From assembly GCA_030917815.1 (NCBI GenBank), contig JAUPTZ010000005.1, positions 23,106 through 87,105 on the forward strand: 64,000 nt of DNA, in the 5' to 3' direction. Numbering within the stretch: position 1 is the stretch's first letter; the number at the start of each line of letters is the position of its first letter. Shown piece by piece: positions 2,822 to 53,057 of this stretch. The DNA is from Candidatus Babelota bacterium (GTDB lineage: Bacteria > Babelota > Babeliae > Babelales > JAUPTZ01). The notes under the pieces were generated by a model that saw nothing but the letters and a program-made list of their open reading frames with translations, searched no databases and was not told the DNA's origin. Both the position numbers and the translations under genes were made by a program.

Positions 2822-3274
2822 ATGAAAAAACTCATCGCAGACAACAAGCGCGCCCGTTTCGACTACCATATCCTTGAAACCTTTGAGGCCGGCATTGTAT
2901 TGACCGGCGACGAGGTGAAGTCACTCCGGGCCGGCAACAGCAACTTAAGCGATTCATACGCCACTGCGCATGACGGCAAAATGCAACTCTTGAACTGTTA
3001 CATTGGGCCCTACTCACATGCCTACGCCAAAGATGACACGGCACGTCGTAGCCGCGCCCTCCTTCTTCACCGAAAAGAAATCAATAAATTAATCGGTGCC
3101 ATTTCCCGTAAAGGGCTCACCGTTGTGCCGCTGAAAATCTATTTTTCAAATCGCGGATATGTAAAAGTAGAATTGGGCCTTGCCCAGCACAAAAACAGCG
3201 TTGATAAACGACAAACCATTAAAGAACGTGACATTGCACGCGAAACTCATCGAGCTCTTAGAGGTCGGGAGTAG
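2822..3274 (+). CDS. smpB: SsrA-binding protein SmpB
   Basis: 150 aa. [31 protein letters not shown] and the rest of the protein line up with E. coli SmpB as I recall it ([31 protein letters not shown]). Confidence 0.95.
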   Translation: [150 protein letters not shown]

Positions 3275-20224: not shown

Positions 20225-20414
20225 TACATATTCCTTCTTAAAATCCACCTACATACTGTATGTACTTTAATGGCCGGCCTTGTTCGTCTTTGCGAGGAGC
20301 CTTTGTGCGACGTGGCAATCCAGAGAGGATAATGTTAAATATCTTATCACGCTGGATCACCACGGGCTGACAATGCAGCCCTCGTGATGACGTAGAAATA
20401 AACTGTTACTATGG

Positions 20415-23159: not shown

Positions 23160-23185
23160 ACAAACAACCCCTTAAGAAAACGATA

Positions 23186-25972
23186 TTAATTTGGCGAACG
23201 ACCTACTGTAATGAACGACCACGAGGCAGGATCAAAATATTTTCTGAGCGCCTGATTTACCTGATCAACCGTTACCCGGTCAACCTCTTTGTCAAAAAGC
23301 TCAGCATCATTAAGCGGGAGCCCGCTATAAAGTGCATTCATAAACATACCAGCCACTTTATCTGCAGTAATACAGTAGGTGCTACGTGCATGCGCACGCT
23401 CATCTTTAAGCGATTGAATCATTGTAGCACTAAGGCCTTCGATATACAACTTTTGAAGAATCAAAACCAATTCTTGGATAATGATATCGACATTATCAGG
23501 GGTCGCAGCAACGGTCAGCCTAATCGTACCGGGCAACAATGTACTGCCGCGTATTACACCACCATCACCAGCGTAAAAGAAGCCGCTTCTTTCACGGATA
23601 TCAAGTACTTGTTTTTGAATATAGTTTGAAAGAAGAGCCAAAATCGCTGCATCACTAGCATTTCCTGTACAGGTCTTACGTATTGCAAATATGTAGGATT
23701 GATCAATTGATAGCTCAATATGATCAACTACGGCTACCTCAGTAATATCAGGAATCGCTACTGAGGCACTGTCCATCATCGCCGCTTCGCACAATGAGCC
23801 AAAATAGTTTTCAGCAAGCGCTTGCACTTCTTGTTGATCAAAGTCTCCGCATAACACCAGCGCAACGCGTGCCGGATCTCGCAACAGCGAGAGGACCTTT
23901 TTTACATCATCAATAGTCACCGTCTGCATGTTTTCTATAGTTTGGTCTTGCCCAAACTTCCAGGGATATTTTGCATACAAAGTTTTTTGGAGATATTCAT
24001 TCAATCGATACCCGGGATCGTTTTGTGAAAAATCAATCTGCTGAATATATTCCTGCTTTTTGCGCTCAAGCAATGACATGGACAGCATTGGCTTATCGAT
24101 AGCAAGACGCATAAGGCGGAGCGCTTCTTCAAAATTATTCTTCAAGGCCGATGTTTGCACAAATTCTTCACCAACCGTCAACCCAATACCTTGCGAATGA
24201 AGCAAGTCGGCAAATTCTTTTGCTGAGTAAGAATCGGTTCCTTGAAGAAGCAAATGTGGTAACACTTGCTTGGCAAAAATTTTTCCGTCTGTACCTAACG
24301 CCAACGAAAGCTCCTCGGCATCCCGCAGCACCAAACCACACACTCGGCAAGGAGAAGCGGTATTGCGCTGCCAATAAACCTTCATACCATTTGAAAGCTC
24401 AAAAGTCTCATGATCCCCAACCGCGATCGGATCGAGCGGAAGACGAGGTGGAAGCCAAGAGGTATCATTCTGAACTCCGGTCATCGGCGCATTCGCACGC
24501 TTACGCGCTTGCAGCAACGCCATATCATGTGCCGATACCTTGATTTGCAACGCGTTCCATGTAGCATATTCCTCAACAGGCAACGGCTCTATAATGAGCT
24601 TATTCATGCGAAATGAGCGTAAATAATTAACCGCAACCGCTTGTATTTCTTCTTGCGTTACCGCCTGCGCCGCATCTTCTCGTTGGAAAAATTGCGTCAC
24701 AATGTTCTGCCCAGATAGCGGTGTAACCGCCAGCATCGCCACTAATGTGGACGGGTCCTCGGCACAACGCACCAACCCAAAGGTCTTATCGTGGTACGTA
24801 GCCGCAAATTCGGCTTCGCTTAAGCCATGTGCCGCGATATCGGATAGTTCATCAATAACCAATGCTTCATAGTCAATGGCATAGAATTCGGGACGTGGAA
24901 TGTATTGAATGGCAAACAACCCACCATGCTCAAGAAAAGAGGCCCCACAACCGACGTTAAAGCAATAACCAAGCCGATTGATCAGTTTATCCTTAAGCCG
25001 AGACTGCAGCGCCGTAGTAATATAATCAAAAGCCAATGAGGCAGAATCTCTTGATCCAGGTAGTTGCCACAGAAAGACGCCCACTCGATGTTGCTGTGTA
25101 TGGTACAGCGTTTTTGAAACGGTAGAAAATCCTGCATAAAAGGGATAACCAACTCCATCGACTTTAGCCGGCTGGCGATCAGCACGCGTAAAACCGACAA
25201 ATGCCTGTTGCGCATACGCGACTACGGCATTCGGATCAACATTGCCACACACAAAAAAGGTAGTATTCTTCGGGGTATAGTGCTTTTCATAGAAGGCCAT
25301 GACCTGCTCGGCCGAATACCCAAGCACCTGCTCTTTGTAGCCAATAAGCCGATGCGCATATGGATGATTCATGGGCAAGAGATCACTCATGGAAAGCGTA
25401 TCTATATCCTCAGACCGCTCTTTAATCTCCTGTGCAATAACACAAAGCTCAGAATTGAGTGGATCGGCTGCTACCACAAGATTTTGTGTTGCATCGGCAA
25501 TCACATCGGCAAACACGGTCCAGTTTTTATCATCGGTCTCAAAGTAATAGTAGGTGTTTTCGTAAGTAGTATACGCGTTATATGACTGACCGGCCTGCAT
25601 ACCAAAATTCTTAGCAAGTAAATCAATATCGCCTTCACGATACCGCCGAGTGCCTTTAAAAATCATATGCTCTAAGATATGGGCCAATCCCTGCTCATCA
25701 GCTGCCTCGCAAGCACCGCCAGCACGCACAAAAGCACCAACCGTCACGATATTAGTATTGGTCGCCGGGATGCACAAAATAGTCATACCGTTTTCAAGCG
25801 TGAATTGGTGAATTCTACTCTTTAATGAAGTAACTATCTCATGGCGTATTTGGCGATCGGCGATGGTCACCTGCGCACCGGCCCCCTGGTTTGCCAAAAT
25901 AGCAGCAGAAATGCTCATAAAAAAAGGCACCAAAACGACTGACAGCACTGATTTTCTTAGCATGTGGGGCAT
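23186..25972 (-). CDS. exported double-length M16 zinc peptidase, paralog 3 (most divergent)
   Basis: AHILEHMIFKGT motif and signal peptide. The C-terminal YFDPASWSFITVGRS block is shared with paralogs 1 and 2. Confidence 0.85.
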   Translation of the reverse strand: MPHMLRKSVLSVVLVPFFMSISAAILANQGAGAQVTIADRQIRHEIVTSLKSRIHQFTLENGMTILCIPATNTNIVTVGAFVRAGGACEAADEQGLAHILEHMIFKGTRRYREGDIDLLAKNFGMQAGQSYNAYTTYENTYYYFETDDKNWTVFADVIADATQNLVVAADPLNSELCVIAQEIKERSEDIDTLSMSDLLPMNHPYAHRLIGYKEQVLGYSAEQVMAFYEKHYTPKNTTFFVCGNVDPNAVVAYAQQAFVGFTRADRQPAKVDGVGYPFYAGFSTVSKTLYHTQQHRVGVFLWQLPGSRDSASLAFDYITTALQSRLKDKLINRLGYCFNVGCGASFLEHGGLFAIQYIPRPEFYAIDYEALVIDELSDIAAHGLSEAEFAATYHDKTFGLVRCAEDPSTLVAMLAVTPLSGQNIVTQFFQREDAAQAVTQEEIQAVAVNYLRSFRMNKLIIEPLPVEEYATWNALQIKVSAHDMALLQARKRANAPMTGVQNDTSWLPPRLPLDPIAVGDHETFELSNGMKVYWQRNTASPCRVCGLVLRDAEELSLALGTDGKIFAKQVLPHLLLQGTDSYSAKEFADLLHSQGIGLTVGEEFVQTSALKNNFEEALRLMRLAIDKPMLSMSLLERKKQEYIQQIDFSQNDPGYRLNEYLQKTLYAKYPWKFGQDQTIENMQTVTIDDVKKVLSLLRDPARVALVLCGDFDQQEVQALAENYFGSLCEAAMMDSASVAIPDITEVAVVDHIELSIDQSYIFAIRKTCTGNASDAAILALLSNYIQKQVLDIRERSGFFYAGDGGVIRGSTLLPGTIRLTVAATPDNVDIIIQELVLILQKLYIEGLSATMIQSLKDERAHARSTYCITADKVAGMFMNALYSGLPLNDAELFDKEVDRVTVDQVNQALRKYFDPASWSFITVGRSPN

Positions 25973-26102: not shown

Positions 26103-27155
26103 ATGGCATTGTTTAGCCTAAAGGGGATGGGGGGAACTATGAATATGTTACGTCGTCTATTTTTACTGATCAGCCTTGTAGCCTACAGCACCAGTGCGCC
26201 GGTCAACGCTATGGAATCGGAGCCGGTTAACGCGAGCGAGTCGGAACTGGATAGTATCGCCAAGAAGATAAAAAATACTCAGACGCAGGACAAGCGGCGG
26301 CGCATTAAGCGCGCATTGCTCGCAGCGGCCGCTGCGGCCGCTGCAGGTGCCATCTGGTGGCGCTATACAGGAAAAAAAGCCAGAAATACTACCAATCTCG
26401 TCAAGCCAAAATCGGCATCGACCAGACAAGTAACAGCGTCAACGGCAGCCACTGTACGAACACGACCTTTACCACAAACACGACCACCGCAAGCACCGTT
26501 ACCGCAACCAGACAGCATTGCACAAAAGTCTGAGGCAACATTTGAACATTATTTTTCCGACTATCTACAATCAAAGAAGAGCTTCCCTTATCAAAAAATC
26601 AAGGGACACCGACCGGTAAGATCACTTGAATATATTATTGGCCGCCTGTCGGAGAATGGGAAACTGTCCGGACACATGAGTTTTACCGAGGCAGAAGAAG
26701 CGCATGACTGGATTCAATGGGCCTTCCCAACACAAACAGAAAGCGCCTTTAATCGCGGAGCTATCCTTTCAAATAAAGAGTTTCAAACAAAAATGAAGGA
26801 AACGCCTGAATTACGCAACACTCTTTTATTGTGCTTCCGGTACTATCTCAACTTTATGGGACTTGATCTTCCTCCGACCTGTGACTTAAATACCAAGCAA
26901 GATGGCATTTCGTTCGTGAAAACCGAAAGATTTGAAGAGGGAATGCAAAATTTCTTAGAAAATGGTCACAATTGGATGAGAGTGTCCAGAATTCTGGAAT
27001 CACTTCGCATTCATGGGCTTGAAGAATATGGCCAGGCATTTAGTAGCTTTTTGACCACCCCAGCAGGAATTGAAAAAATGAAGCCTGGTTTTATTAAGCA
27101 AACGCAGACCAGCCAGGATTTTTGGAAAAAAAGAAGCCCGGCGGTACGCAGATGA
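26103..27155 (+). CDS. secreted/membrane protein with a C-terminal OGFr-like (opioid growth factor receptor N-terminal conserved region) domain
   Basis: AHDWIQWAFPTQTES...LLLCFRYYLNFMGLDL...GHNWMRVSRILESLRIHGLEEYGQAF parallels human OGFR as recalled (NHSYIQWLFPLREPG...AYELMLGFYGIRL...HNNLRITRILKSLGELGLEHFQAPL). The N-terminus has a signal peptide plus a poly-Ala helix. An alternative start lies at 26139. Confidence 0.7.
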   Translation: MALFSLKGMGGTMNMLRRLFLLISLVAYSTSAPVNAMESEPVNASESELDSIAKKIKNTQTQDKRRRIKRALLAAAAAAAAGAIWWRYTGKKARNTTNLVKPKSASTRQVTASTAATVRTRPLPQTRPPQAPLPQPDSIAQKSEATFEHYFSDYLQSKKSFPYQKIKGHRPVRSLEYIIGRLSENGKLSGHMSFTEAEEAHDWIQWAFPTQTESAFNRGAILSNKEFQTKMKETPELRNTLLLCFRYYLNFMGLDLPPTCDLNTKQDGISFVKTERFEEGMQNFLENGHNWMRVSRILESLRIHGLEEYGQAFSSFLTTPAGIEKMKPGFIKQTQTSQDFWKKRSPAVRR

Positions 27156-27809: not shown

Positions 27810-28543
27810 CATAACGACAGTTTTGATCCCGCTGGCAACTGCATTGGCCACCAGCTGAGGCGCTATTGACCCCTCCGTATGCCCAACTACCAAGAAGGGC
27901 TCAGAAAATGGCCTAGAGGCCTGATCAAGAGAAGAAATATAGTAGGAAGAACATATCATAGTAAAAGCCTTTGTTTTTCATCTAACAATAAAATTACTGT
28001 ATCATCTTTGGGATAGGTCGTATAGGGGGATTGTATCAAAATTTACCCCTGTCGCCGTTCAACTATTATGTCATTTCATCAAAACAACGACCCAGTCGTT
28101 CTTTTATCGCTGCCCCAAAAAAATACACTTTAAAAAATCACTGCTCTCGCGGTAAAAAAAAGCCCCTCGCGATCTAATTACTCACAATTTTGTGCATAAC
28201 TATTAGAAGGAGGGAGATGCGGCCTTCCAGCCATCCTTTTTCTTTTGCCACCCCGAAGCTCAAAAAAATGAGCCTCGTGTCGAATGGTGTTTTAACTGTC
28301 TAAAAAACCGGTAGCTAGGACGAATATTACGGCTCTTTACCAAAACTATCGGACGGTTACTATTACGCAATGAGATAAATTGCCCACTATACCGAGAACA
28401 TAACTGCAGGGGTCTCTGGGCATAGTGGGCAACAGAGTTTTAACTTTCGTCACACAGCTCTTTTGCTTTTCACTATAAAACTCAGTAGAATCTGCTCCCT
28501 AAAGGCAGTTTTTTAATTGTTTTATCTTACGCAAGGAGTATCG

Positions 28544-29080
28544 ATGCAACATCAATCAAAACCTGATCAAGAGCAAACATATACAGTAACGATACGGCCA
28601 ATTAACGACGTTACACAAAGAAAGTCACTTCAAGAAGCCCTTGCACGCATTGATGAAATGAACAAGCAGCTTGAGTATTTTTACAGCACTATTTCGGTAG
28701 GATACAAAGAGGCCACCGAACTCTTATCAACATTACAAAAAGCTCGCCTCATCAAAGAAGAGCCACATAAAGAGCGAACCGATCAAAGTGTTATGACCTA
28801 CCTTGATCTGCTTCATGCCATAAAAATAGAAATCGAACGCGAAAGAGTCATTCTTGAATCGCTTCAATCGGCACAAGAAGAAAAAACCATAGAAATTTAT
28901 GAACCTGCACCAACAAATTTTGATGATTTCGTACGTCAAAAAATAAAAAACACAAAGGTGCAAACCAAGAAAATTGAAAGCTCACTGCGTGTTAGTTTTT
29001 CGCGCTACCAGCACTGGATCAATCAAACCATTACGCGACTTAATCATCTGCAAAAAATGTATGTTCCTGCAACGAGTTAG
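28544..29080 (+). CDS. hypothetical coiled-coil protein (178 aa)
   Basis: The ATG at 28544 is preceded by CAAGGAG. The protein is rich in Glu, Lys and Gln with a heptad-like pattern. I recognise no family. Confidence 0.5.
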   Translation: MQHQSKPDQEQTYTVTIRPINDVTQRKSLQEALARIDEMNKQLEYFYSTISVGYKEATELLSTLQKARLIKEEPHKERTDQSVMTYLDLLHAIKIEIERERVILESLQSAQEEKTIEIYEPAPTNFDDFVRQKIKNTKVQTKKIESSLRVSFSRYQHWINQTITRLNHLQKMYVPATS

Positions 29081-29083: not shown

Positions 29084-30208
29084 TTAATCTTTTTTGTTGC
29101 CACTCTCTTGGGAAGTCGGCACGTGGTCGTTAATGTAGGCGATACGCTCGTCCAAAGATGACTGTATATCAAGAATGCCCGCCTTGTGTATCATCGCGGG
29201 CATTTCTATTTGCCGCTTACGATGAGTATGTAATTGATTTTTCAAGAAACAGGTAACGTAGGGATGTACCAATCCCTCAAGCTCTTCGATCTGACGAGAA
29301 ACATACTGATAATGATGCTTATAGTTGTAATCCATTCGCTGCCGTCGCAGCGCTTCATCAGTCTCAACACTTTTGAGCGCTTCAAGATATTCTTCTGAGG
29401 ACTCACCAAACGCTTTTAATGCAAACAAATCGGCCTCGTGCTGATATTTGCGACTAAGATGCGCATCAATTATTTCTGCCGTCAATGTGCATGCAGCAGC
29501 AAGAAGAACAGAGTTAAGGCCGGTGCTTGAAAATGCTTTAATAATACTTACCGCATGATCTTTCCAGTCGCCATTATCCATCGCCTCTTTCGCACAACTC
29601 AGTGCGCATATACCAACAATCCCCGCAACGGCTCCCCACCATATCTTTCGTGCAAGGTTCTTTTTTTCGCAATGTCGTCGCGCAATTTTAGCCAATTCAC
29701 GTGCTATAACCGCACGAACTTCACACTCACTGCGACGCTCAAGAAACGATTGACTAAATACCAACGCACTAAATCCCCCCCCCAGCGAAAGAGCTTCAAC
29801 CGTTTTTACCGTGCGATTCTTTTTACGTGCAACAAATATAAACGTTGTATCTATATTCATCTTCAGACACATGGCAGAGACTTCTGCGTAAGTGCGCGGT
29901 GCATATTTGCGCGCAACATAATGAATGGAGGACGGAATGCTGAGGCCGTGCAAAAGCCCTTCTATGCGCCTACACCACTCAACCGAAGAAGCAATTTGTT
30001 CGTGAGCCAGTGAAAGCGGAATGAAAAATTTTCGCAATTCAGAGGGAACCTGCACCTGTTCATACAAGAATTCTTCATTGCGTCCAACTTCGCAAAGCTC
30101 TGAAAACACCTGTTTTCCATCAATAGACATGCTTTGTGTCGAGCCCGCAAATGCAAAGCTCAACACAAAAACTAGTGGTAACAATCTACGAAGTAAAACC
30201 AAAATCAT
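29084..30208 (-). CDS. M48/HtpX-like paralog with a degenerate metal site (third family member)
   Basis: IARELAKIARRH sits at the position of IGHEIAHLKLGH, and the downstream KYQHEADLFA motif is kept. The likely start is [10 protein letters not shown] at 30208, overlapping the leuS stop (TAATG). Confidence 0.5.
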   Translation of the reverse strand: MILVLLRRLLPLVFVLSFAFAGSTQSMSIDGKQVFSELCEVGRNEEFLYEQVQVPSELRKFFIPLSLAHEQIASSVEWCRRIEGLLHGLSIPSSIHYVARKYAPRTYAEVSAMCLKMNIDTTFIFVARKKNRTVKTVEALSLGGGFSALVFSQSFLERRSECEVRAVIARELAKIARRHCEKKNLARKIWWGAVAGIVGICALSCAKEAMDNGDWKDHAVSIIKAFSSTGLNSVLLAAACTLTAEIIDAHLSRKYQHEADLFALKAFGESSEEYLEALKSVETDEALRRQRMDYNYKHHYQYVSRQIEELEGLVHPYVTCFLKNQLHTHRKRQIEMPAMIHKAGILDIQSSLDERIAYINDHVPTSQESGNKKD

Positions 30209-40662: not shown

Positions 40663-40696
40663 GACCCTGAATATTTTGGCATGCAAAGGTATTGAT

Positions 40697-41830
40697 ATGG
40701 TAAAACAGCAGTTGTGGATTATAAATAGCGCGCTTGTCGTCCTTGCGATAGTAAGTATTGCGCTTGCGCAGCTTGTTAAGCAAGACCTGCCGTCAATTCC
40801 AACGCGGCGGCGAAACTACGCACAGGCCGAAATAAAGCCACCTCGACTCATTGTAAGCCCGGAAAAAATATATCAAAACGATCTATTTGATACTTTTTCG
40901 GCACCAGCCGAGCCGGTCCCAACCTCAAAAAATCTTGTGACTCCGATTCCACAATTCAGCGTCAAAAATTCAGCAGCACCTACTAAGAACCAAAAGGTAG
41001 ATTTTATTCCACCGCTCGATATCACGATAAAAGGGATTATCATGTCCCCACAGCCAAAAAATAGCATTGTGATGGTAGCCGACTCAACCGGCAAAGAGCA
41101 AATGTATCACATAGGTGACAAAATTAATGACGGCCAAGTACTTAAAATCACTAAAAATCAAATGGTTGTAATTCGCGGTAACGGCCAGCAAGAAACATTC
41201 TTCTTACGTAAGATGGAAAAGCTCAATCCAGGACTTCCATCATGGGATTTTGCCATTAAGAAGATCGATGATGCTCTCTATCACCTTGATCCGGTAGAAA
41301 TTTTAAAAGAGATCACCAGCATTGGTGAGGTAATTGAAGCACTTGATTTATGCGGTGCATATAAAGATGGCAAATCAATTGGTCTCTTAATAGGATCAAT
41401 TAAACACCATCCACTAGCAGAGAAGCTTGGCTTGGCCTCGGGAGATATTATAACCAAAGTTAACAGCCTACCAGTCACCGACTCAAAAGAGCGTATTGCG
41501 GTGTACGATGCTATTGCCGAACTTTCAATGGGTGGCTACATTCACGTTTCGGTAATGCGTAGCGATAAATCATTAGAGCTTTCCTATCTCTTAAAACGGC
41601 TTGAGCGTCCATCACCATTTAGTTCATCAAGCGGCGATACTAAAGATGGTAAAGACACACAGGGATCAGACCTATTTCAGTTAGGTAAAGATGCTCAGCG
41701 GCAGCAAAATCGTCGTCGTTTTGACCAAATTCATCGGACCTCAGAACAGCATGACGCCGCTATATCTGAAATGCGCAAAAAAATGCTCGATGATATGCGT
41801 ACCCGCGCTCCAAATAGACGTGTATTATGA
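40697..41830 (+). CDS. GspC-like inner-membrane protein (TM + HR/PilP-like beta domain + PDZ)
   Basis: An N-terminal TM helix (WIINSALVVLAIVSIALAQLV), then ITIKGIIMSP...VMVADSTGKEQMYHIGDKINDGQVLKITKNQMVVIRGNG (GspC HR-like), then a PDZ-like region (LAEKLGLASGDIITKVNSLPV). The track start at 40676 is also possible. Confidence 0.55.
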   Translation: MVKQQLWIINSALVVLAIVSIALAQLVKQDLPSIPTRRRNYAQAEIKPPRLIVSPEKIYQNDLFDTFSAPAEPVPTSKNLVTPIPQFSVKNSAAPTKNQKVDFIPPLDITIKGIIMSPQPKNSIVMVADSTGKEQMYHIGDKINDGQVLKITKNQMVVIRGNGQQETFFLRKMEKLNPGLPSWDFAIKKIDDALYHLDPVEILKEITSIGEVIEALDLCGAYKDGKSIGLLIGSIKHHPLAEKLGLASGDIITKVNSLPVTDSKERIAVYDAIAELSMGGYIHVSVMRSDKSLELSYLLKRLERPSPFSSSSGDTKDGKDTQGSDLFQLGKDAQRQQNRRRFDQIHRTSEQHDAAISEMRKKMLDDMRTRAPNRRVL

Positions 41831-41852
41831 GTGAACGAAGGATATAAGAAGT

Positions 41853-44756
41853 ATGAATAAAAAATTTATTTTTACCATTGCACTCATTGTCTGCGTTCAA
41901 GCGTATCCACAAAAAATGTTTGACGATTTTCTGTCGGCACAAACGCCCTCATTAGAAAATAGATTTGATGATGATGTACTCGCAGCCACACCATCTCTAA
42001 GTTTAGGCAATGAATCGGCACTCACCAAAGAAGCACAGAGAAATCCGGATCTTTTTGGCCCTGTTGATGAAAAAAAAGATGTGTATTTAAATTTTGAAAA
42101 CGCCGATCTAAAAAATTTTGTTGAATATATTGCCGACATCAAAGGCATGAATATTATTCCGGACAAGTCGATTGCCGGCAATAAAATCTCGCTCAACTTT
42201 CGCAATCCAGTAAGTAAGACCGGCGCATGGAATACGTTCCTTACCGTACTTGAAATGGCCAACCTCAGTATCGTAAAGGTTGGTAACCTGTATCGCGTAA
42301 TAACTAAAGATAAAAAATTTAAACTGCCGCTGCCTACCTTTATTGGCGTCAATCCAAACACGCTTCCTGATTCTGATGCCACAATTCGCTACATAGCAAT
42401 GCTCGACAATATTCCAGCTCAGGACGTAAAAAATCTTCTACAAAGCATGCTCAGTCAACCGACGAGTCTTCTCGATCCACCAAATATTAATGGGTTCATC
42501 ATTACCGACTGCTCCTGCGTTATAAAAGCGGCGATGCAGGTACTTAATGAGCTCGACCAAACCGGTGTTGAAGAATCGGTTTACGTCATTCCATTAAAAA
42601 AAGCCAACGCGAGTGATGTAAAAACATTGTTTGAAACACTTATTACCACCAAAGACTCAAACCCCTTAGCGAAACTTCTTGGCAAGCCGCAAGACTCAAG
42701 CGAATACTTTACTCCTGGTACTCGTATTATTGCCGAAGATAGAACGAATAAACTTATCTTATTGGGACAGCGACAATCACTCGAAAAAATAAAAAACTTC
42801 ATCACTGAACATATCGATACCGATCTCAAACAAGCAAAATCACCCCTCAGGATTTACGACCTACAAAACGCTAACGTAACCGACATTGTTACCATCCTGA
42901 AAAGTGCAACCGATTCATCGCAATCATCTGCTGCCGGCAAGCAGGCCGCTACTTTTGGTGCAATTCGAGATGGAGCAAAATATTTTAAAAATATGACCTT
43001 TCAGGCCGATAAAGAAGGGAATCGATTGCTTGTTTCTTGCACCGAAGATGGTGACTGGGATCTCCTAAAGGAGACTATAAAGAAATTAGATACCGCACAG
43101 CCACAAGTTGCCATGCAAATGCTGATTGTAAGCATCAGCGCAACGGCACTCACGCAGCTCGGCGGGCAGTTTCGTAGTCCAAACCAAAATAGTGTTGGCG
43201 GCGGCATAAACTTTCAAACAGCAGCAGTATCACAACCGGTATTCACTACCGACAGCTCCGGCAACACACAAAGTGTTCTTGGTAACATGCTCAATTCGCT
43301 TGCGCTAGGACGAGGTATGACTGCAGTAAGTCTTGGTAACGCTGGTGGCAGCAATGGAGTCTGGGGTGTATTCAATGCCATTAAGCAACAAACCGATGCC
43401 ACCATATTATCCCAGCCCTTTGCCGTTGCCGCTAACTGCACCGAAACAAAACTCTTGGTCGGTAGTACCAGTTATATTACTACACAGTCAACCGGTGGTG
43501 CTGGCGCTATTTCCGGTAAAACACCGGCCGATGCAAATACTACCATTACATTTACCCCACAAGTAAACAGCGAAGGTGTCATTCGTTTAAAAATTACGGC
43601 CGACATTAAAGAATTCGTTCCTGAATCGGCCAACTTAAGCACACAATCAAAGTACCTTGATACGGTTGTTACCGTAGCCAACGGACAAGTTTTGGTTATC
43701 GGTGGTTTTATTCAAACCAAAATAACCGATAACGGAGGTCAAACCCCACTTCTAGGCTCCATTCCTATCTTGGGATGGATTGCTAAGAACCTTTCTCGTA
43801 CCGTTGAAAAAAGCTACCTCTTTCTATTTTTATGTCCAACCATTCTAAAACCTCGCACATCCCCCGGCATCGGCACGTATAGCAAAATGTGTCTTCATCA
43901 AGCGGCAAAAGAAGTGGAAGAAACAATTAAAACAACAAAAACAAATGACCCTATCCACAACTGGCTCTTCAACTCAAGTGGCGAAAATTATTCACATAAA
44001 GTGATCGACTTCGCTAACGCACGCTATCAGCCCAATACGGTCGATATTCGCTACGATCCTTACTACCGCAGTTCGATGGCAGATACTGGGAAACAGGCCC
44101 CTCCACTAAAAATAGATGGTGAATCATCGTCGCCAGGGGCATATATGCAAACCCAGCATATGTATTCTGATGAAGCAAAGATTCAAGAAAAATCAACAAA
44201 GGTGGTTGGCGAAAAGGTGGCAAAGGAGGTAGAAATGCCACAGCAGCCACTAGAAAATAAACCGCTAAAGAAAAAGGAATCCCGCAAGAAGCCTGAGAAG
44301 GTTATCTTTGACCCACAAAGGGAAGTGATAAGAGATGACAACGACGTAATAGCCGCTATTGAAGCTCCATTGCCAGCGCCAACGACCGCAGGGCATCTCG
44401 CACCCGAACCGGCAAACATTGCAATGTTTGATGTAGATACTGCACTCGCTGAAAAGCGATCAAGATTACGCTCACTTCTTGCACAAGGCTCACTGGGAGA
44501 CCTGCTTACTAAGCCGGCAACACAATCATCACCAATTAAAGAGATGACAGAAGAAGAGTTTAATGCATCGTATGAAATCGAGCCGGAAATCGAAACCGTG
44601 CCTGAATCAACACCTGTGGCACAAGATTCATTTACACTTACCCGACGAAATGGCATACAAAACCTCTTTGCTACAAGCAATCAAGGCGAAGTAAACACAT
44701 CTTCACTAAATCGACCTGCAAGTAGTGGCCTACAATCACTGTTTGGAGGTAAATAA
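41853..44756 (+). CDS. secretin 1 (GspD/PilQ family) with a ~300-aa low-complexity C-terminal extension
   Basis: N0-like VYLNFENADLKNFVEYIADIKGMNIIPD, repeated N-domains, and a secretin core (PQVAMQMLIVSIS...TPLLGSIPILGWIAKN...YLFLFLCPTILKP). The tail from about 43860 is rich in E, K, P and S. Confidence 0.85.
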   Translation: MNKKFIFTIALIVCVQAYPQKMFDDFLSAQTPSLENRFDDDVLAATPSLSLGNESALTKEAQRNPDLFGPVDEKKDVYLNFENADLKNFVEYIADIKGMNIIPDKSIAGNKISLNFRNPVSKTGAWNTFLTVLEMANLSIVKVGNLYRVITKDKKFKLPLPTFIGVNPNTLPDSDATIRYIAMLDNIPAQDVKNLLQSMLSQPTSLLDPPNINGFIITDCSCVIKAAMQVLNELDQTGVEESVYVIPLKKANASDVKTLFETLITTKDSNPLAKLLGKPQDSSEYFTPGTRIIAEDRTNKLILLGQRQSLEKIKNFITEHIDTDLKQAKSPLRIYDLQNANVTDIVTILKSATDSSQSSAAGKQAATFGAIRDGAKYFKNMTFQADKEGNRLLVSCTEDGDWDLLKETIKKLDTAQPQVAMQMLIVSISATALTQLGGQFRSPNQNSVGGGINFQTAAVSQPVFTTDSSGNTQSVLGNMLNSLALGRGMTAVSLGNAGGSNGVWGVFNAIKQQTDATILSQPFAVAANCTETKLLVGSTSYITTQSTGGAGAISGKTPADANTTITFTPQVNSEGVIRLKITADIKEFVPESANLSTQSKYLDTVVTVANGQVLVIGGFIQTKITDNGGQTPLLGSIPILGWIAKNLSRTVEKSYLFLFLCPTILKPRTSPGIGTYSKMCLHQAAKEVEETIKTTKTNDPIHNWLFNSSGENYSHKVIDFANARYQPNTVDIRYDPYYRSSMADTGKQAPPLKIDGESSSPGAYMQTQHMYSDEAKIQEKSTKVVGEKVAKEVEMPQQPLENKPLKKKESRKKPEKVIFDPQREVIRDDNDVIAAIEAPLPAPTTAGHLAPEPANIAMFDVDTALAEKRSRLRSLLAQGSLGDLLTKPATQSSPIKEMTEEEFNASYEIEPEIETVPESTPVAQDSFTLTRRNGIQNLFATSNQGEVNTSSLNRPASSGLQSLFGGK

Positions 44757-44758
44757 TT

Positions 44759-46381
44759 ATGCTGATACTGAAAAACCTATTTTTCCCAAGGCTCTTGCAT
44801 AACAAGCCACTGTTTCCTATCCGTCGCGTTGCCATTCACATCGAATCAACAACCATTCATGTTGCACATGTTCAGGATACACGTACAAAGACAATAATTA
44901 CTGCTCTTGAGGAATATCAAATTAACCCGGGTGACGCACGCACATACACGCAACGCCTCGTTGCTACCTTAAAAAAAATAGCCCCTAAAATAGAAAAAAA
45001 TGCAGAGATTATTGTTACCTTTCCTTCATCAAAAGTGGTAGTAAAAGAGCTCACGCTGCCGTTTCTCGATGAAGAAAAAATCCGCATGGTTATCGAATAT
45101 GAAATAGAGGCAGTAATTCCCTTTAAGCTGGAAAATGCGGTAACCGATTTTATCATTCTCAGCCGCAGTGAAGTTAAAGAATCATCCAATGTATTGGTTA
45201 TCGCTGCACAAAAAGAAGAAGTCAAAAAAATTGTAGACGCTCTTCATAAGGCCGATATAGAGCCTCACCAGATTACTATTGATTTATTCAGTATCATCTC
45301 ACTTTTCGGCCATATTCCTACCTATAGCAAACTTAAGCATGCCTATGCAGTTGTTGATATGGGCCCCCAGTCAACACGAATCGCACTTATCAACAGCCAA
45401 ACCATGATCGCCACCAGAACGCTCTTGCAAGGATCGGAGCTCCCTACAAAAATTAATGATGATGAAATCGGACAACCCATTGATTTAGCAACACATCATA
45501 GTAGATTATTCAGCGAGATTAGCTTCACGTTAGATTCTTTTGAAATCAAGCAGTCAAGTGTTCCAGAGATTGAAAAACTCTTTTTTATTGGAACACCAAG
45601 CGTGTTCAGCGGCTTTGAGGAATACGCAAAAAAAGCTATCCATTGCCCATGCGAAGTTCTTGCAACCGAACAAATAACAACTAATCCAACCATACAATCA
45701 AAAATCTCATTGCAGCCCGCTTCATGGCAAACCTACAGCCGCGTTCTTGGCGCTGCATTGGTCTCTCCTGCGTACGAATCATTCACCCTTCGCCGCAAGG
45801 AACTGGAGCTATCACCACGCCCGTTAATACAACAGCAGTTGCTCGCCGGCATTATCCTCTTTACTCTTGCCCTAGGTGCCCTGGGACTTCAGGGGTATTT
45901 TCAAGTCGAGGAAGGGACTGAGCAAATAACACTCCTCGAGGAGCGTGAAATCAAACGGCTGCGCTCAGCTCTCCCAACCGATCATCCCGGCACAAAAAAG
46001 AAAACTATTAAAACATTGGCTCGAGAAGTCGAAACATATGTGCAAGAACAGGAAGAATTATGGTCGGCCTTTGCCACTCAGCGCTTACGTCCCCTAGAGA
46101 TATTGCAAGAACTCACCATACTCTTCAATAAAAAGAAGTTTGATGTTGATATTGAGCACATTATCATTAGTCGCAACGATGCGCCAAATCCTATTGAAAT
46201 CAAAGGAGTGTTTCGTTCAAAAACAGGCAAGGAAGATTTCAAGCATTTCACCGAACTAGCTGATGATATTGGCAAGCTCGCCAAGATGCTCGTATTAACC
46301 GAAGAAATTGATCCATCTCAGCTACCGGACAAGGGAGTTAGTTTCACTGCTCACTTTAAATTGCGCGAAGGGGCATTATGA
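44759..46381 (+). CDS. PilM-PilN fusion / GspL-like assembly-platform protein
   Basis: An actin-like PilM pattern (VTFPSSKVVVKELTLPF...VLVIAAQKEEV...AVVDMGPQSTRIALI), then a TM helix (LLAGIILFTLALGALGLQGYF), then a periplasmic domain of about 170 aa. Confidence 0.6.
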   Translation: MLILKNLFFPRLLHNKPLFPIRRVAIHIESTTIHVAHVQDTRTKTIITALEEYQINPGDARTYTQRLVATLKKIAPKIEKNAEIIVTFPSSKVVVKELTLPFLDEEKIRMVIEYEIEAVIPFKLENAVTDFIILSRSEVKESSNVLVIAAQKEEVKKIVDALHKADIEPHQITIDLFSIISLFGHIPTYSKLKHAYAVVDMGPQSTRIALINSQTMIATRTLLQGSELPTKINDDEIGQPIDLATHHSRLFSEISFTLDSFEIKQSSVPEIEKLFFIGTPSVFSGFEEYAKKAIHCPCEVLATEQITTNPTIQSKISLQPASWQTYSRVLGAALVSPAYESFTLRRKELELSPRPLIQQQLLAGIILFTLALGALGLQGYFQVEEGTEQITLLEEREIKRLRSALPTDHPGTKKKTIKTLAREVETYVQEQEELWSAFATQRLRPLEILQELTILFNKKKFDVDIEHIIISRNDAPNPIEIKGVFRSKTGKEDFKHFTELADDIGKLAKMLVLTEEIDPSQLPDKGVSFTAHFKLREGAL

Positions 46382-46935
46382 GTTTTTTAGAAACCATTGC
46401 TGACACCATTTCACAGCAAACTAAGAAGCAGCACAAAATCTTTATCCTCACCATCGGCTCGCTTCTTTCTCTGTCACTTATTGGTATCGTCTATTTTTTA
46501 TACGCACAGCGAGATGGGGACATCCAAACCATAACCTCACTCTATGAACAAATAAAAAAGAACGACTCACTGATGGCAAAAAGTGAACGCACAAAAGCGG
46601 AAGAAGATCGTGTTCAAGCACTCCTTGAAAGCTATAAGGGGTTTAGCATCAAAACATTTTTTGAAACACTCACTTCAGAACAAAAAATGAAAGCCGAGAC
46701 CGGATGGGAGACCGCAACTTGCAATATTGAGGGTAATGAAACCTTTGATGAGATCGTGCTTGCCGCTACCTTCAAGGGGCAGACAACGCAAACATTAGTA
46801 AGTCTACTGAATGCACTTGAAACACATGAAAACGTCTACATAAAAGAGCTAGAAATAAAAAAAGAAGGCAAAAAGAACATCACTTTCGATCTCACAATAG
46901 CAACCAAAAAACGTAAACAATTCTGGGAAGATTAG
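46378..46935 (+). CDS. PilO/GspM-like bitopic membrane protein
   Basis: 185 aa with an N-terminal TM helix (IFILTIGSLLSLSLIGIVYFLY). Its size and position after the L-like gene fit, and it overlaps that gene by 4 nt. The call rests on context, not motifs. Confidence 0.4.
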   Translation: MSFLETIADTISQQTKKQHKIFILTIGSLLSLSLIGIVYFLYAQRDGDIQTITSLYEQIKKNDSLMAKSERTKAEEDRVQALLESYKGFSIKTFFETLTSEQKMKAETGWETATCNIEGNETFDEIVLAATFKGQTTQTLVSLLNALETHENVYIKELEIKKEGKKNITFDLTIATKKRKQFWED

Positions 46936-46938
46936 GCC

Positions 46939-49425
46939 ATGATGGGACATCGCTATTTATCACTTCTATGTATGTGTATGTTGATTGCGTGCTGCCTGGC
47001 TGCAAAAGAAGAGGGTACGCAAGGGTCGGTGCAAAAGTTCTCATTTAAAAAAGAAAAAAAGGCTGATGCTTCTGAAACTCGACAAAATGATGCAGTAAAG
47101 ACAATAACACTAAAGTCGGACAGTCCCGTTACACCACAGGAAGGCACAGCGAGTGAAAAAACTCCCTCAAGCGACCAGCCTGCTGAGGGAACGATTTACT
47201 TTAATTTTGATAATGCATCGCTTACCACGGTACTTAATTATCTGGTTGATCGAAAGAATATGGACGTTATTCCACACAAGGATCTTCAGAACATCAAGGT
47301 AAGTCTTGTCTCGCGTGAACCAATGTCACTTGCTGAGGCATGGGAAACGGTGCTTGTATTGATGGAGGCAAACAGCTTTACCATTGTGAACGTCAATGGA
47401 ATTAACCGAGTTGTTCCGCTCAACGCCTCATCTCAAAACTCATTACCCTGCTATAGCTCGATTCGCGGAACCAGGCCACAAGACCTACCTGATACTAACG
47501 CCATATGTCGCTACATTTATTTCTGTAAAAACTTAAAGGTTGATGTCGCTTCAAACATTATTTCGCCCCTTGTAAGTGACAAAGCGGTACAGGTTAACCC
47601 AACATTGCAAGCATGTATCATTACTGATAACTGCAATTATATTAAATCGGCACTTCGTATCGTAGAAGAACTAGACATAAACGGGATGCGACAAACTATT
47701 AAGATTCTTCAATTAAGGCATACCAACGCCGATCAACTTGCAAAGCTCTTGAACGAACAGATCGTACAGGGTCAGCAGCAAGATAATTCTAAAATTCGTA
47801 TCATTGGTGAAGAGAAGAGGCGTGAAATGTCGTTCTTCTCAAAAGATACAAAAATATTCTCAGAGCCTATGCACAATCGCCTCATATTTATGGGTATGGA
47901 GGATGCCATTAATCGCATAATAAATTTCATTAATAAGCACCTTGATGTACCACTTGACGCTGCAAAATCACGGCTTCGCATTAAAGAACTCAAATACTAC
48001 AGTGCACCAGCTATGAAAGAGTTGCTTGATCAAATGATTACACCGCCAAAGGGGCTCGGTGGCACGACCGGACTTGTCGAAGGGGAATACAAATTTTTCC
48101 AAGATGTTGTTATCACACCGGAAACGCCAAGTGGCAGCGGCGGTACCGTTTCAGGAACCGGAAACAGATTAATCATTTCTTGCAATCCTGAAGACTGGCA
48201 ACGTCTCTCTACATTCATAGACCAAATAGATAAGCCACAACCACAGGTTGCGATTGAAATGATGATTGTTGACGTGGAAATTGATGATGAAATTGGGCTC
48301 GGGGGTAAGTTCAGAACACCAAATGGCCTCCTGGGCAATAACATCAATGCTTCCTCTTTTATGCTTGATAGCGCAAGTACTAGCTTAAGTACGGTACCAA
48401 CCAACGTGCTTAATAACATAGCACTCGAGCCAAACTCATCTATCATATCGTTTGGTAATGCGTCATCAGACAAGATCTGGGGCGCTATTCGTACCATGTA
48501 TGGCATTAGCCATAGTAATGTCATTTCACAGCCCTACCTGGTAGCAAATAATAACACCAAGGGCACGGTAAAATCTTCAGTAACGCACTTGATACCAACC
48601 GTTCAAACAAACAATAGCACACAACCGGTGCAAACAGATGTGCCACAATCGGCCGATATCACCGCCCAAATTACCCCTCATGTGAACGCCTCCGGAATTA
48701 TTAAATTGGAAATCCGTATAACCGTAGACGAATTTAAATCGGCAAAAGACTCCAACGCCGATAAAACAAACAGAGAAATCACTATACAAGCCGTATCTAT
48801 GGCGGCTGGCGAAGTTTTAGTTCTCGGTGGACTCGCAAACAGTAAGCATGCAAATTCCACCTGGGCTGTTCCTATTTTGAGCGCCATCCCCATTTTAGGA
48901 AATTTATTTAGAGACAGGACTCGAGAAACCATCAAATCAAATCTCTACATATTCATACGACCAACAGTGATAAAGCCGCACTTTAACCTAGGGGCCGATG
49001 AATATACACAACTAAAACTTGATTATGCAAAATACCAAGTTTTAACCAGTGATGACTCCTCACTAAGCCAAGATCCAATTCAGCGCTATTTATTTGCCCC
49101 AACCCATTATAATATGAAGCAAAAGGCTATAGATAATAAAACAAATCGAATGCCAGTCATTGATGACTTCGCTGAACGTCGTCACCTTCCTAATGAAGTA
49201 GAAATGGCCAAAGACCCGCTCTTTCATAAGATTCAGGAAACATCCGATATCACCTATGAACCAGAAGAGGGATTTGCATCGATGCCTCACGTTAATCCAT
49301 CCGAGTACACTACGCCAGGGATTTTTGAAAATCTAATGTTTGACGACCTTTTCAATGAAAAAAGTCAAAACACTAACACCCCGCAACTACTTGGGAAGCG
49401 ACAGTCGCCCTTGCGCACTCAGTAA
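46939..49425 (+). CDS. secretin 2 (GspD/PilQ family), probable lipoprotein
   Basis: N0-like IYFNFDNASLTTVLNYLVDRKNMDVIPH and secretin core PQVAIEMMIVDVE...VPILSAIPILGNLFRD...LYIFIRPTVIKP. The lipobox LIAC (Cys18) follows a basic n-region. Confidence 0.85.
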   Translation: MMGHRYLSLLCMCMLIACCLAAKEEGTQGSVQKFSFKKEKKADASETRQNDAVKTITLKSDSPVTPQEGTASEKTPSSDQPAEGTIYFNFDNASLTTVLNYLVDRKNMDVIPHKDLQNIKVSLVSREPMSLAEAWETVLVLMEANSFTIVNVNGINRVVPLNASSQNSLPCYSSIRGTRPQDLPDTNAICRYIYFCKNLKVDVASNIISPLVSDKAVQVNPTLQACIITDNCNYIKSALRIVEELDINGMRQTIKILQLRHTNADQLAKLLNEQIVQGQQQDNSKIRIIGEEKRREMSFFSKDTKIFSEPMHNRLIFMGMEDAINRIINFINKHLDVPLDAAKSRLRIKELKYYSAPAMKELLDQMITPPKGLGGTTGLVEGEYKFFQDVVITPETPSGSGGTVSGTGNRLIISCNPEDWQRLSTFIDQIDKPQPQVAIEMMIVDVEIDDEIGLGGKFRTPNGLLGNNINASSFMLDSASTSLSTVPTNVLNNIALEPNSSIISFGNASSDKIWGAIRTMYGISHSNVISQPYLVANNNTKGTVKSSVTHLIPTVQTNNSTQPVQTDVPQSADITAQITPHVNASGIIKLEIRITVDEFKSAKDSNADKTNREITIQAVSMAAGEVLVLGGLANSKHANSTWAVPILSAIPILGNLFRDRTRETIKSNLYIFIRPTVIKPHFNLGADEYTQLKLDYAKYQVLTSDDSSLSQDPIQRYLFAPTHYNMKQKAIDNKTNRMPVIDDFAERRHLPNEVEMAKDPLFHKIQETSDITYEPEEGFASMPHVNPSEYTTPGIFENLMFDDLFNEKSQNTNTPQLLGKRQSPLRTQ

Positions 49426-50639
49426 TGCCACAATGCGTACTTGATGTACTTCACACCGTAGGTTTTTTACTTGCTAGTGGATTGATTGGCACCAGCTTTT
49501 TTATATACACACAGACTGAGCGTGTTCATGTATCCATCCTAACACCCCTATCACCACTGTTCTCAGTAGGAGCAACCCTTGGCGGCATTGGCCTGTACCA
49601 CATGCTCTCAGGCTATTGCTTCTTTGCACTCCTAGCTGCCATAGGATTCGCATGGCATGCTTTTTACCGTACGAGAAATTATATTCCCTTACATGCTGCT
49701 GCCTGTGCGCTTTGTGCCGTAATGACGCTCTGTGTGGATCATCATCAATTTACCGAAAAAAAAGATCTCTTGCTGCAAGGGAGACACACACTGCACGGGC
49801 TCGTCATTGATCGTAAACAATGGGCACACCGACTTAATGCAACGGTAATAACTATTAACCTCACCCATCTGGATTATGCACCCACTAGCGGCCAATTTAA
49901 ATTTTTTGTTTACACTAACCCATCAATAACAGTGGGTGATTATGCGATCTTTTTTCATACTACCGCATCGCCAGCCCCTCAAAAGAAAGATTTTCTCTCA
50001 TATGCACTGCGTGACCACTCTCTAGGCTCTTGCTTTACGCCAATACTACAAGCACGAATATTCCCCACCAAGTCTTATTACAGCCGCTGGATTTCGTGGT
50101 GGTACATCTGGCGGGAAAACCTCTATAGATCACTACAAGAAACTATTCCAGCTATACCATTCACGTACATATCAGCACTCTTTTTTGGCAACAAAGAATG
50201 TGCTGAATTCTTAGACATTCGTGCAAAGTTCACTCGCTGGGGACTAACTCATTATTTAGCTCGCTCCGGTCTTCATATTTCATTACTCATCACTCTTTGG
50301 GTGGGAGTATTCCGATTCATCCCTCTCCCAATCACATTAAAAGCACCGATTTTATTCGCCATACTCTTTCTCTACGACCATCTTTCGTGGGCAAGCATCT
50401 CATTTAACCGAGCACTGTGGCTTTGGTTTTTTTATTTAGGAAGCTGGCTCGTAAAAGCAACAGCAACCCCACTGTTTGGCCTTTCTCAACTCTCATTAGT
50501 AATCCTACTCTATAATCCCTGGCAATCAGGATGTCTTGATTTTCAATTGAGCTTCTTATTGACCATGATTCTTATGATATATGGCTACTATCATCAACAA
50601 TCGTTTCTCCTGTCTTATTGCGCCAAGAAAAAGAAATAG
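49425..50639 (+). CDS. short ComEC/Rec2-like membrane channel protein (no beta-lactamase-fold domain)
   Basis: ALFFGNKECAEFLDIRAKFTRWGLTHYLARSGLHISLL matches the ComEC competence-domain motif (G..H..A.SGLH). The N-terminal TMs plus an OB-like insert resemble DUF4131. The protein is only 404 aa. Its ATG overlaps the secretin-2 TAA (TAATG). Confidence 0.6.
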   Translation: MPQCVLDVLHTVGFLLASGLIGTSFFIYTQTERVHVSILTPLSPLFSVGATLGGIGLYHMLSGYCFFALLAAIGFAWHAFYRTRNYIPLHAAACALCAVMTLCVDHHQFTEKKDLLLQGRHTLHGLVIDRKQWAHRLNATVITINLTHLDYAPTSGQFKFFVYTNPSITVGDYAIFFHTTASPAPQKKDFLSYALRDHSLGSCFTPILQARIFPTKSYYSRWISWWYIWRENLYRSLQETIPAIPFTYISALFFGNKECAEFLDIRAKFTRWGLTHYLARSGLHISLLITLWVGVFRFIPLPITLKAPILFAILFLYDHLSWASISFNRALWLWFFYLGSWLVKATATPLFGLSQLSLVILLYNPWQSGCLDFQLSFLLTMILMIYGYYHQQSFLLSYCAKKKK

Positions 50640-50684
50640 GGTATACAAACGGTTCCCTTTTTGTTTCTTTGCGTAAGGATGTTT

Positions 50685-52847: not shown

Positions 52848-52915
52848 AAAGTCGTGCGGCTATATGATGTTCTCCAGATGTCTCACTTGTAACGATTGCA
52901 CTGTCCGAGTAGGAA

Positions 52916-52969
52916 TGTGGATAACTCTGTGGATAACTTGTGGATAACTTGTGGATTGGATGTGGATGA
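52916..52969 (-). repeat. DnaA-box array, left arm (5 boxes, minus orientation)
   Basis: TGTGGATAA at 52916, 52928 and 52939 (perfect complement of TTATCCACA), plus TGTGGATTG at 52950 and TGTGGATGA at 52961. Spacing is 12/11/11/11 bp. Confidence 0.85.
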
Positions 52970-53057
52970 CATTCGAATGGCGCGTGCCTGAGGAGCAATG
53001 CAAGGACCTGCGCTGGATTTGAGCCACCAGAGCCATTATTGAGAGGGTTGCAAAAAC

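Follow-up and report, generated by a model that had tools for sequence, protein, structure and literature searches.

An OGFr_N-domain protein with a predicted Sec signal peptide in Dependentiae: a possible host-directed effector from a rare clade of a mainly bacterial family

The 64,000-nt stretch analysed here (the window; part of contig JAUPTZ010000005.1 of the Candidatus Babelota assembly GCA_030917815.1) carries at 26103..27155 on the plus strand a gene for a protein that ends in an OGFr_N domain, named after the opioid growth factor receptor. Inside the known OGFr_N family it falls in a rare clade whose members bear signal peptides, a clade that had not been described before and that has an architecture of its own. 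It is possibly a host-directed effector rather than the product of a stolen eukaryotic gene. Our preferred reading, held tentatively, is a Sec-exported, tethered OGFr_N module, possibly released by a type II secretion system (T2SS), that acts outside the bacterial cytoplasm and probably on the host.

The gene product is a member of the OGFr_N family by profile cutoff, by its invariant residues and by predicted fold. In an hmmscan search against Pfam-A it matched OGFr_N (PF04664) with E = 5.3e-15 and 55.9 bits, for a gathering cutoff of 22; no second family in Pfam-A came near significance, and a scan of NCBIfam gave no meaningful match. A six-frame hmmsearch found a single copy of the domain in the window. 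The domain features are as follows, with window coordinates and, here and below, residues numbered in the 350-aa translation unless stated.

26103..27155 (+), longest open reading frame (ORF) for the OGFr_N-domain protein, 350 aa and a stop
26535..27134 (+), folded OGFr_N domain, globular and largely alpha-helical in the AlphaFold2 (AF2) model, residues 145-344
26679..27086 (+), Pfam PF04664 match, residues 193-328, profile positions 35-162 of 208
26694..26732 (+), motif 1, EEAHDWIQWAFPT
26835..26861 (+), motif 2, FRYYLNFMG
26964..27023 (+), motif 3, GHNWMRVSRILESLRIHGLE

All eight residues that are invariant in a 99-sequence family alignment are kept: E198, H201, Q205, F208 and P209 in motif 1, and H289, R293 and R296 in motif 3. 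The window protein also has each of the residues found at 90% or more in that alignment (D202, W206, S214, N217 and N290), and an additional conserved Arg lies in the 'GR' motif of the domain's N-terminal part. Taken together, the Glu, the two His, the Gln, the two Arg and the GR Arg suggest a site for catalysis or for binding a small ligand, which might be anionic or phosphorylated.

Two AF2 runs were made, one with the C-terminal 206 residues and the 99-sequence alignment, the other with the full 338-aa form of the protein (see below for the start codon). The former gave a mean predicted local distance difference test (pLDDT) of 92.5 and a predicted template modelling score of 0.90 for a mostly helical fold with two tiny beta elements, ordered from the first supplied residue; in the full-length model the globular part again exceeded pLDDT 90. 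As modelled, the folded domain is about 200 aa long and the Pfam match covers its core only. Neither sequence profiles run against PDB nor Foldseek found a relative of the domain among solved structures. The only significant structural match in BFVD was the model of an 'Opioid growth factor receptor' from Marseillevirus LCMAC202 (E = 2e-6, TM 0.58/0.64, 23% identity). The original prediction, made from the letters of the sequence, had proposed an OGFr_N domain and named a Pfam search and a structure prediction as checks; both bear it out, and the outcome that would have refuted it, a profile search without a significant OGFr_N hit, did not occur. The three OGFR blocks it described are present, but the C-terminal ~170 aa to which it matched them should be replaced by a folded domain of about 200 aa.

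The translation is identical to NCBI MDQ5890369.1, a 'hypothetical protein' of a Candidatus Dependentiae bacterium metagenome-assembled genome (MAG), and the same 350-aa sequence is present on four contigs, the longest of 103 kb. Translation probably starts at M13 (26139), which corrects the longest ORF: the G-rich sequence AAAGGGGATGGGGGGAACT, resembling a ribosome-binding site (RBS), precedes this codon, the homolog P0002 (66% identical) begins at the equivalent Met, and independent gene calls on the same sequence are 338 aa long (P0001). The features upstream of the domain are:

26139..26141 (+), probable true start codon, M13, from the RBS-like sequence 5' of it, the homolog start and the 338-aa gene calls
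26139..26210 (+), predicted Sec-type signal peptide MNMLRRLFLLISLVAYSTSAPVNA, from sequence rules and hydrophobicity, kept in P0002 and helical in AF2
26238..26387 (+), one long predicted helix, residues 46-95 (34-83 of the 338-aa form in AF2), at a pLDDT of about 82-85
26292..26312 (+), basic stretch KRRRIKR, abutting the hydrophobic segment; KKRRRIKQ in P0002
26313..26360 (+), Ala-rich, marginally hydrophobic segment ALLAAAAAAAAGAIWW, Kyte-Doolittle about 1.1-1.3
26388..26534 (+), predicted disordered tether rich in Pro, Thr and Arg, residues 96-144 (84-132 in 338-aa numbering), pLDDT mostly below 50

The putative signal peptide, conserved in P0002, has a basic n-region (MNMLRR), a 10-residue h-region (LFLLISLVAY) and then STSAPVNA ahead of MESE, with V at -3 and A at -1; signal peptidase I (SPase I) is predicted to cleave after VNA, at A36. 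The protein thus has a predicted cleavable Sec signal peptide, as a secreted effector of this type would; signal-peptide calls for this protein and for its clade were judged by sequence rules and hydrophobicity alone. In the AF2 model of the 338-aa form a signal-peptide helix (3-16) is followed by a disordered stretch, by the long helix, which takes in both the basic stretch and the Ala-rich segment, by the tether and by the globular domain (133-332). The two hydrophobic segments (25-34 and 71-86) are about 35 residues apart. The segment ALLAAAAAAAAGAIWW might anchor the protein in a membrane or act as a weak stop-transfer signal; its summed Hessa value is +4.5, against +0.6 to +5.0 for the N-terminal signal segments of the clade, all Hessa figures here being simple sums of central-position values over 19 residues, which differ from the full deltaG predictor. 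The signal peptide, basic stretch and poly-Ala helix that the original prediction had placed upstream of the domain are all seen, in the sequence and in the AF2 model.

A full HMMER scan with a profile of the clade against 1.84 billion representatives at 50% identity found 2,397 OGFr_N clusters at E <= 1e-3, 410 at E <= 1e-10 and 14 at E <= 1e-30. The window protein falls in a clade of 14 of the 2,397 clusters, which together with near-identical members are monophyletic in 80 of 100 bootstraps of a neighbour-joining (NJ) tree of 183 domains, computed from BLOSUM-score distances by what is a crude method. By the calls described above, 13 of 15 full-length clade members are signal-peptide-like at the N-terminus, with P0023 and P0028 weaker by hydrophobicity, and no feature but the signal peptide is shared by nearly all full-length members. 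Two short sequences, P0014 and P0030, start at the domain.

Beyond the signal peptide the clade is diverse. The short helix architecture is common to the window protein and P0002. Both are missing a ~150-aa N-domain (residues ~25-165) that in many clade members separates signal peptide and hydrophobic segment. It looks conserved by eye in P0003, P0004, P0005, P0006, P0027, P0029 and P0032, and in P0003, the single member scanned, it matched nothing in Pfam. Long low-complexity linkers are found in P0024-P0026, P0028 and P0031. P0023 has two OGFr_N copies, the first one degenerate, and P0025 (918 aa, L020 8001-10757) has an extra C-terminal region of ~440 aa with the motifs ..QSGVDCGYH.. and ..GHWICLGF... 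We considered this region as a Josephin- or papain-like deubiquitinase and set the idea aside as unsupported, there being no Pfam match at E <= 10 and no PDB sequence match. Synteny gave no partner: none of the operon neighbours in L001, L013 or L020 recurs in the window. The P0025 gene, like the OGFr gene of the window, adjoins an M16 peptidase gene; its 950-aa product in L020 is only 23% identical to the M16 copies of the window.

The window protein, P0002-P0005 and P0029 have an internal hydrophobic segment; P0027 and P0032 have a weaker one, and seven members (P0006, P0023-P0026, P0028 and P0031) have none that is clear. The segments that exist are short and Ala/Gly-rich, with summed Hessa values of +1.5 to +4.9. 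Because the seven have a signal peptide without a second clear hydrophobic segment, their domain would have to be exported, and it is simplest to suppose that throughout the clade the domain has its place of action outside the cytoplasm.

The wider family is mostly of a different kind. Among the best-scoring 150 homologs, 79 are standalone proteins of about 150-230 aa (typically ~170) without export signal, with the consensus MSKIIDFYRG..PD..GR...W....LE..HDYIQWLFP...NHN.LRITRIL; named examples come from a Gemmataceae MAG and the chromosome of Kaistia sp. 32K, under the NCBI/UniRef name 'opioid growth factor receptor-related protein'. Nine Myxococcota loci carry the domain, as do long chromosomal metagenomic contigs, amid ordinary bacterial neighbours. 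A scan of genome contigs for clade members found only the distant Myxococcota homologs and no Dependentiae genome. Searches by tblastn found homologs in two jumbo Xanthomonas phages, Xoo-sp13 and XacN1, and in an uncultured phage of 595 kb (GenBank MN047793.1, AP018399.1 and LR756511.1), and phage-like contigs also carry them (L021, 6001-6510; L022, 7001-7501); on one phage-like contig the OGFr_N gene sits between PARP-like and RNA ligase genes. The metazoan matches are multi-copy proteins from fish, mussels, sponge and frogs. Since the domain is abundant in bacteria and present in phages and Marseillevirus, it is not eukaryote-specific; it is mainly bacterial, and its name reflects where it was first seen.

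A second group of proteins combines the domain with a membrane-targeting element. An upstream hydrophobic stretch is found in 16 of the best-scoring 150, and at least 10 share a hydrophobic motif of ~25-30 residues, ..(V/A)TP(F/I)F..LD.., after a leader of 35-70 aa. This anchored or Lys-rich family comprises P0047, P0052, P0059, P0067, P0073, P0133, P0152, P0158, P0160, P0168, P0051 and P0065, the last two being forms with a long Lys-rich N-terminus. On the two contigs examined, L015 (3504-4238, P0047) and L016 (8001-9230, P0051), the OGFr_N gene lies near valS and a PknD-like kinase gene. In Chlamydia, pknD and valS lie side by side. The NCBIfam equivalog for PknD, PRK13184 (cutoff 839), presumably derived from chlamydial PknD, scores the L016 kinase above its cutoff (946.6 bits) and the L015 kinase below it (729.9). 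Because of these valS and PknD-like kinase neighbours, we read the two contigs as Chlamydiota. Proteins of this type may form an undescribed family of membrane-anchored effectors.

The origin of the clade's domain was approached by pairwise comparison, by profiles and by the NJ tree. With the Kaistia protein the window domain shares 33% identity (52 bits), and with both frog OGFRL1-like copies, to which all three motif blocks align, 25-28% (45-48 bits). Size-matched profiles were run against 18 clade domains; they were built from metazoan sequences, from random sets of 15 standalone proteins of bacterial genomes and metagenomes, and from 12 membrane-anchored Chlamydiota-type proteins. Scores were 23-76 bits for the metazoan profile, 28-95 for the standalone profiles and 47-113 for the Chlamydiota-type profile (83-113 for 17 of the 18, the degenerate first copy of P0023 apart). 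The ranking, Chlamydiota-type highest and metazoan lowest, was the same for 18 of 18, in a comparison that profile diversity may bias and in which most sequences, protists included, are without taxon labels. A eukaryote-derived gene should be closest to the eukaryotic members; neither the profiles nor the pairwise identities place it there, with protist sequences unlabelled, and these comparisons lend no support to a metazoan source, while a protist could have been the source. The original prediction's term 'eukaryote-like' is misleading and, in the sense of eukaryote-derived, unsupported in view of 2,397 clusters, free-living bacteria, phages, Marseillevirus and the lowest-ranking metazoan profile. 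The phylogeny it had called for gave the monophyly of the clade but left its sister group unsupported, none exceeding 16 of 100 bootstraps.

An exported protein would also need a route past the outer membrane. The source is a member of Dependentiae (TM6), intracellular and protist-dependent, and the gene content of the window agrees, with genes for parts of an outer-membrane secretion machine in the window itself:

40676..50639 (+), T2SS-like cluster: GspC-like, two GspD-like, PilM/GspL-like, 185-aa ORF and ComEC-like genes

The order is GspC-like (T2SSC plus PDZ), secretin with N0, PilM/GspL-like, the 185-aa ORF, a second secretin with N0, and ComEC-like; the GspC-like, two GspD-like and PilM/GspL-like genes span 40676-49425 and lie 14 kb from the OGFr gene. 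The remaining parts of the apparatus would lie beyond the window. T2SS components are among the core TM6 orthologs, and two gspD copies were found in 7 of 7 TM6 genomes compared (Yeoh et al., PMC4776705). We infer that this cluster is the outer-membrane export route of the OGFr_N protein. The intracellular type of bacterium supposed by the original prediction fits both the identical protein in the Dependentiae MAG and these TM6-typical genes with their two gspD copies.

The mechanism we propose runs as follows. SecYEG would export the protein and SPase I would cleave after A36, leaving a mature protein of ~314 aa that consists of a 50-residue helix, a disordered tether of ~50 residues and the C-terminal OGFr_N domain of ~200 aa. 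The marginal Ala-rich helix, which forms the C-terminal half of the long helix, would either pass through the translocon or serve as an anchor, and the T2SS of the same genome, or vesicles, would carry or display the protein past the outer membrane. There the tethered domain would act on a component of the protist host through its conserved His/Glu/Gln/Arg site, with the activity expected of an ancient, mostly bacterial fold. Domain identity, the kept invariant residues, the architecture, the phylum, the T2SS genes and the signal peptide common to the clade are shown here; export itself, passage of the outer membrane, a host target and any catalysis are inferred. Further points favour the proposal. 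In this phylum, proteins with a signal peptide are the proposed pool of effectors (PMC6561590). The fluid architectures of the clade (its linkers, the duplication in P0023, the extra region of P0025) are of a kind usual for effectors. By analogy, the Chlamydiota-type anchored proteins offer a parallel, and lipoprotein-type OGFr_N proteins show that the domain is able to work outside the cytoplasm.

Other considerations weigh against it. Export of the window protein is argued from sequence rules and hydrophobicity, and about 24 of the 43 window ORFs of at least 150 aa have an N-terminus like a signal peptide or transmembrane (TM) segment; because about half of the window proteins are of this sort, a signal peptide discriminates little here. 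The figure agrees with the 44% given for the cultured Dependentiae member Chromulinavorax destructans, whose proteins of this sort were proposed as its secreted effectors (PMC6561590). The standalone homologs without export signals presumably act in the cytoplasm, and the window protein is the sole clade member with a taxon name. The biochemistry of the domain is a guess, because no solved structure resembles it and no neighbourhood is conserved: the neighbourhoods of standalone homologs in Kaistia, on three long metagenomic contigs and at the nine Myxococcota loci had no conserved partner gene. DNA-repair neighbours (UvrC, SRAP, Ogt) and the PARP and RNA ligase neighbours in phage were considered as a functional clue and set aside as too inconsistent. 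A link to anti-phage defence was likewise dropped: PADLOC, run on the window protein, P0025, one standalone and one Chlamydiota-type homolog, gave no hits. In the literature we found no paper that links OGFr to effectors of Chlamydiae or Legionella or that gives a catalytic mechanism.

The strongest competing explanation starts from classical topology rules. For the window protein on its own, with a hydrophobic helix behind a signal peptide that is cleaved off, these predict a type I protein with its C-terminal domain in the cytoplasm. The signal peptide would then export a short N-terminal segment only (the ~150-aa N-domain in relatives), the Ala-rich helix would stop transfer, and OGFr_N would stay inside, tethered to the inner membrane, with a housekeeping or regulatory job as in the standalone homologs. 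A signal peptide plus a second hydrophobic helix with a basic flank is the textbook layout for such a protein. P0003, P0004, P0005 and P0029, with signal peptide, N-domain, a more hydrophobic helix, linker and OGFr_N, have the look of a sensor on the outside coupled to a domain on the inside, and the majority of homologs in the best-scoring 150 are standalone, without export signals. We still think this explanation rather improbable: the seven clade members with a signal peptide and no clear internal segment include P0006, which has the same N-domain, and would place OGFr_N outside the cytoplasm within this very clade; the window protein's helix, rich in Ala and Gly, is a borderline candidate for integration into a membrane; and more positive charge lies before the helix than after it, which by the positive-inside rule speaks against a clean outside-to-inside stop-transfer. 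The protein may instead be exported and act on the bacterium's own envelope, that is, on the periplasm, outer membrane or surface. This would suit the OGFr_N proteins elsewhere that bear a lipobox (P0037, ..IGIGC; P0049, ..FVSAC; P0056, ..LASGC), the LTGC lipobox-like site in the clade member P0003, and the position of the gene amid exported M16, M48 and C11 proteases and beside a DUF1761 membrane protein. It is unlikely, given that Dependentiae have little envelope metabolism of their own, that Pro-rich disordered tethers, domain duplication and added domains are more typical of host-directed proteins, and that the best-matching profile was built from membrane-anchored proteins on Chlamydiota-type contigs, another intracellular lineage.

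An origin of the domain in a eukaryote, with mimicry of the host OGFr that disturbs growth control of the OGF/OGFr type, we regard as very improbable. The motif-level similarity to metazoan OGFr and OGFRL1 and the position of the clade near metazoan sequences in the point-estimate NJ tree are in its favour, as is the stretch KRRRIKR, which we take to resemble a classical nuclear localisation signal. That stretch, however, abuts the hydrophobic helix, like the charges that flank a membrane anchor; the metazoan profile is the lowest for every clade domain; the protein of a free-living alphaproteobacterium (Kaistia) is more similar than frog OGFRL1; bootstraps give no sister group; and bacteria carry the family in large numbers, with further copies in phages. 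Enkephalin signalling is not known from protist hosts. A bolder version of the effector reading would make OGFr_N an ancient enzymatic or small-ligand fold, given export or anchor signals separately by Dependentiae and Chlamydiota and carried by giant viruses and jumbo phages too, with the clade a T2SS-released tethered effector that shares the biochemistry of animal OGFr/OGFRL1 and disturbs host growth control or nuclear processes; we hold this to be distinctly unlikely.

The surroundings of the gene hold several further observations. An M16 peptidase gene is divergent from the OGFr gene, and a DUF1761 membrane-protein gene lies 37 nt downstream of it. Exported proteases are dense in the window, and a few other features stand out:

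17483-25972 (-), 3258-5329 (-), 29084-30280 (-), 32900-34372 (+) and 50661-52124 (+), a set of three tandem ~920-aa M16 paralogs, three M48-like and two clostripain-like C11 proteases, most with signal-peptide/TM-like N-termini
28517-29080 (+), near the OGFr gene, 187 aa, no family match and no signal peptide, perhaps a coiled coil (weak, non-significant Pfam)
34369-35736 (-), near the OGFr gene, 455 aa, no family match, N-terminus like a signal peptide
52848-53373, likely chromosomal replication origin
59790-60800 (+), leucine carboxyl methyltransferase (LCM) family protein, 99.6 bits

The likely origin holds all seven exact DnaA boxes (TTATCCACA) of the window, at 52916, 52928 and 52939 on the minus strand and at 53058, 53069, 53090 and 53157 on the plus strand, with a one-mismatch box at 52961. 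GC skew turns from negative to positive at about 52.5-53 kb, and the region is flanked by a UDG-family gene and by nusA-infB, with no adjacent dnaA gene. The LCM family is best known from eukaryotic PP2A regulation; here some 130 nt of its ORF also belong to the end of a gene for an HhH-GPD glycosylase, so that the LCM start may be mis-set. The window also encodes an H+-pyrophosphatase and ThyX.

OGFr_N defines human OGFR and OGFRL1, yet it is a domain without solved structure or known biochemistry; loss of OGFRL1 is linked to cherubism (PMC11062026). The small bacterial OGFr_N proteins are a testable set for working out the role of the fold, and if the reading as an effector with an ancient fold were true they would be a tractable route to the molecular function of OGFr. 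Two unrelated intracellular lineages carry the domain with export or membrane-anchor signals, and the clade adds a candidate effector family to Dependentiae, a phylum without a characterised effector. If the protein only does ordinary housekeeping on a membrane tether, what is left of the finding is a correct domain annotation.

Several known systems can be compared with the window protein. The standalone ~170-aa proteins (Kaistia sp. 32K K32_15750, Gemmataceae MAG) have the same fold family and invariant residues, lack signal peptide, helix and tether, and lie in ordinary chromosomal contexts; relative to them, sequence is inserted near the start of the domain in the window clade (FEHYFSDY...GHRPVRSL versus DFYRG..PD..GR.L). 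The viral proteins of Marseillevirus and the jumbo phages have the same fold but are standalone, ~170-190 aa, without export signals. Metazoan OGFr and OGFRL1 share the motifs HD(W/Y)IQW.FP, F.G and HN..R(I/V)(T/S)RIL and the invariant E/H/Q/F/P/H/R/R. Their architecture differs: the metazoan domain is N-terminal or present in 2-3 copies (fish, mussel, sponge, frog) and, as Pfam describes it, is followed by imperfect repeats, whereas the window domain is single and C-terminal, behind signal peptide, helix and tether, with nothing after it. The nematode effector MiISE6, tried as a parallel because an OGFr_N region has been described in it, was rejected, as the match covers its residues 35-62 only.

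Two intracellular comparisons come closer. The putative effectors of the same phylum, such as the ankyrin-repeat proteins of Chromulinavorax destructans, likewise combine a Sec signal peptide with a domain apt for the eukaryotic cell (PMC6561590); they differ from the window protein in the cargo domain, and all are putative effectors. The Chlamydiota-type proteins, like the window protein, come from a lineage of obligate intracellular life and carry OGFr_N behind an element that targets the membrane. They have a leader and one hydrophobic stretch, shorter than the classical bilobed Inc domain, and no Sec signal peptide, where the window protein has one. For its part the window protein does not qualify as a chlamydial Inc protein: those lack a Sec signal peptide and have, close to the N-terminus, a bilobed hydrophobic domain of ~40-60 aa, whereas its two hydrophobic segments are some 35 residues apart and the first is a predicted Sec signal peptide. 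Because anchored, lipobox and signal-peptide forms of OGFr_N proteins all exist, the domain appears to have moved out of the cytoplasm repeatedly. We found no paper describing export or anchoring of OGFr_N in protist-dwelling lineages, and it is in two such lineages, Dependentiae and Chlamydiota, that these moves would be most conspicuous.

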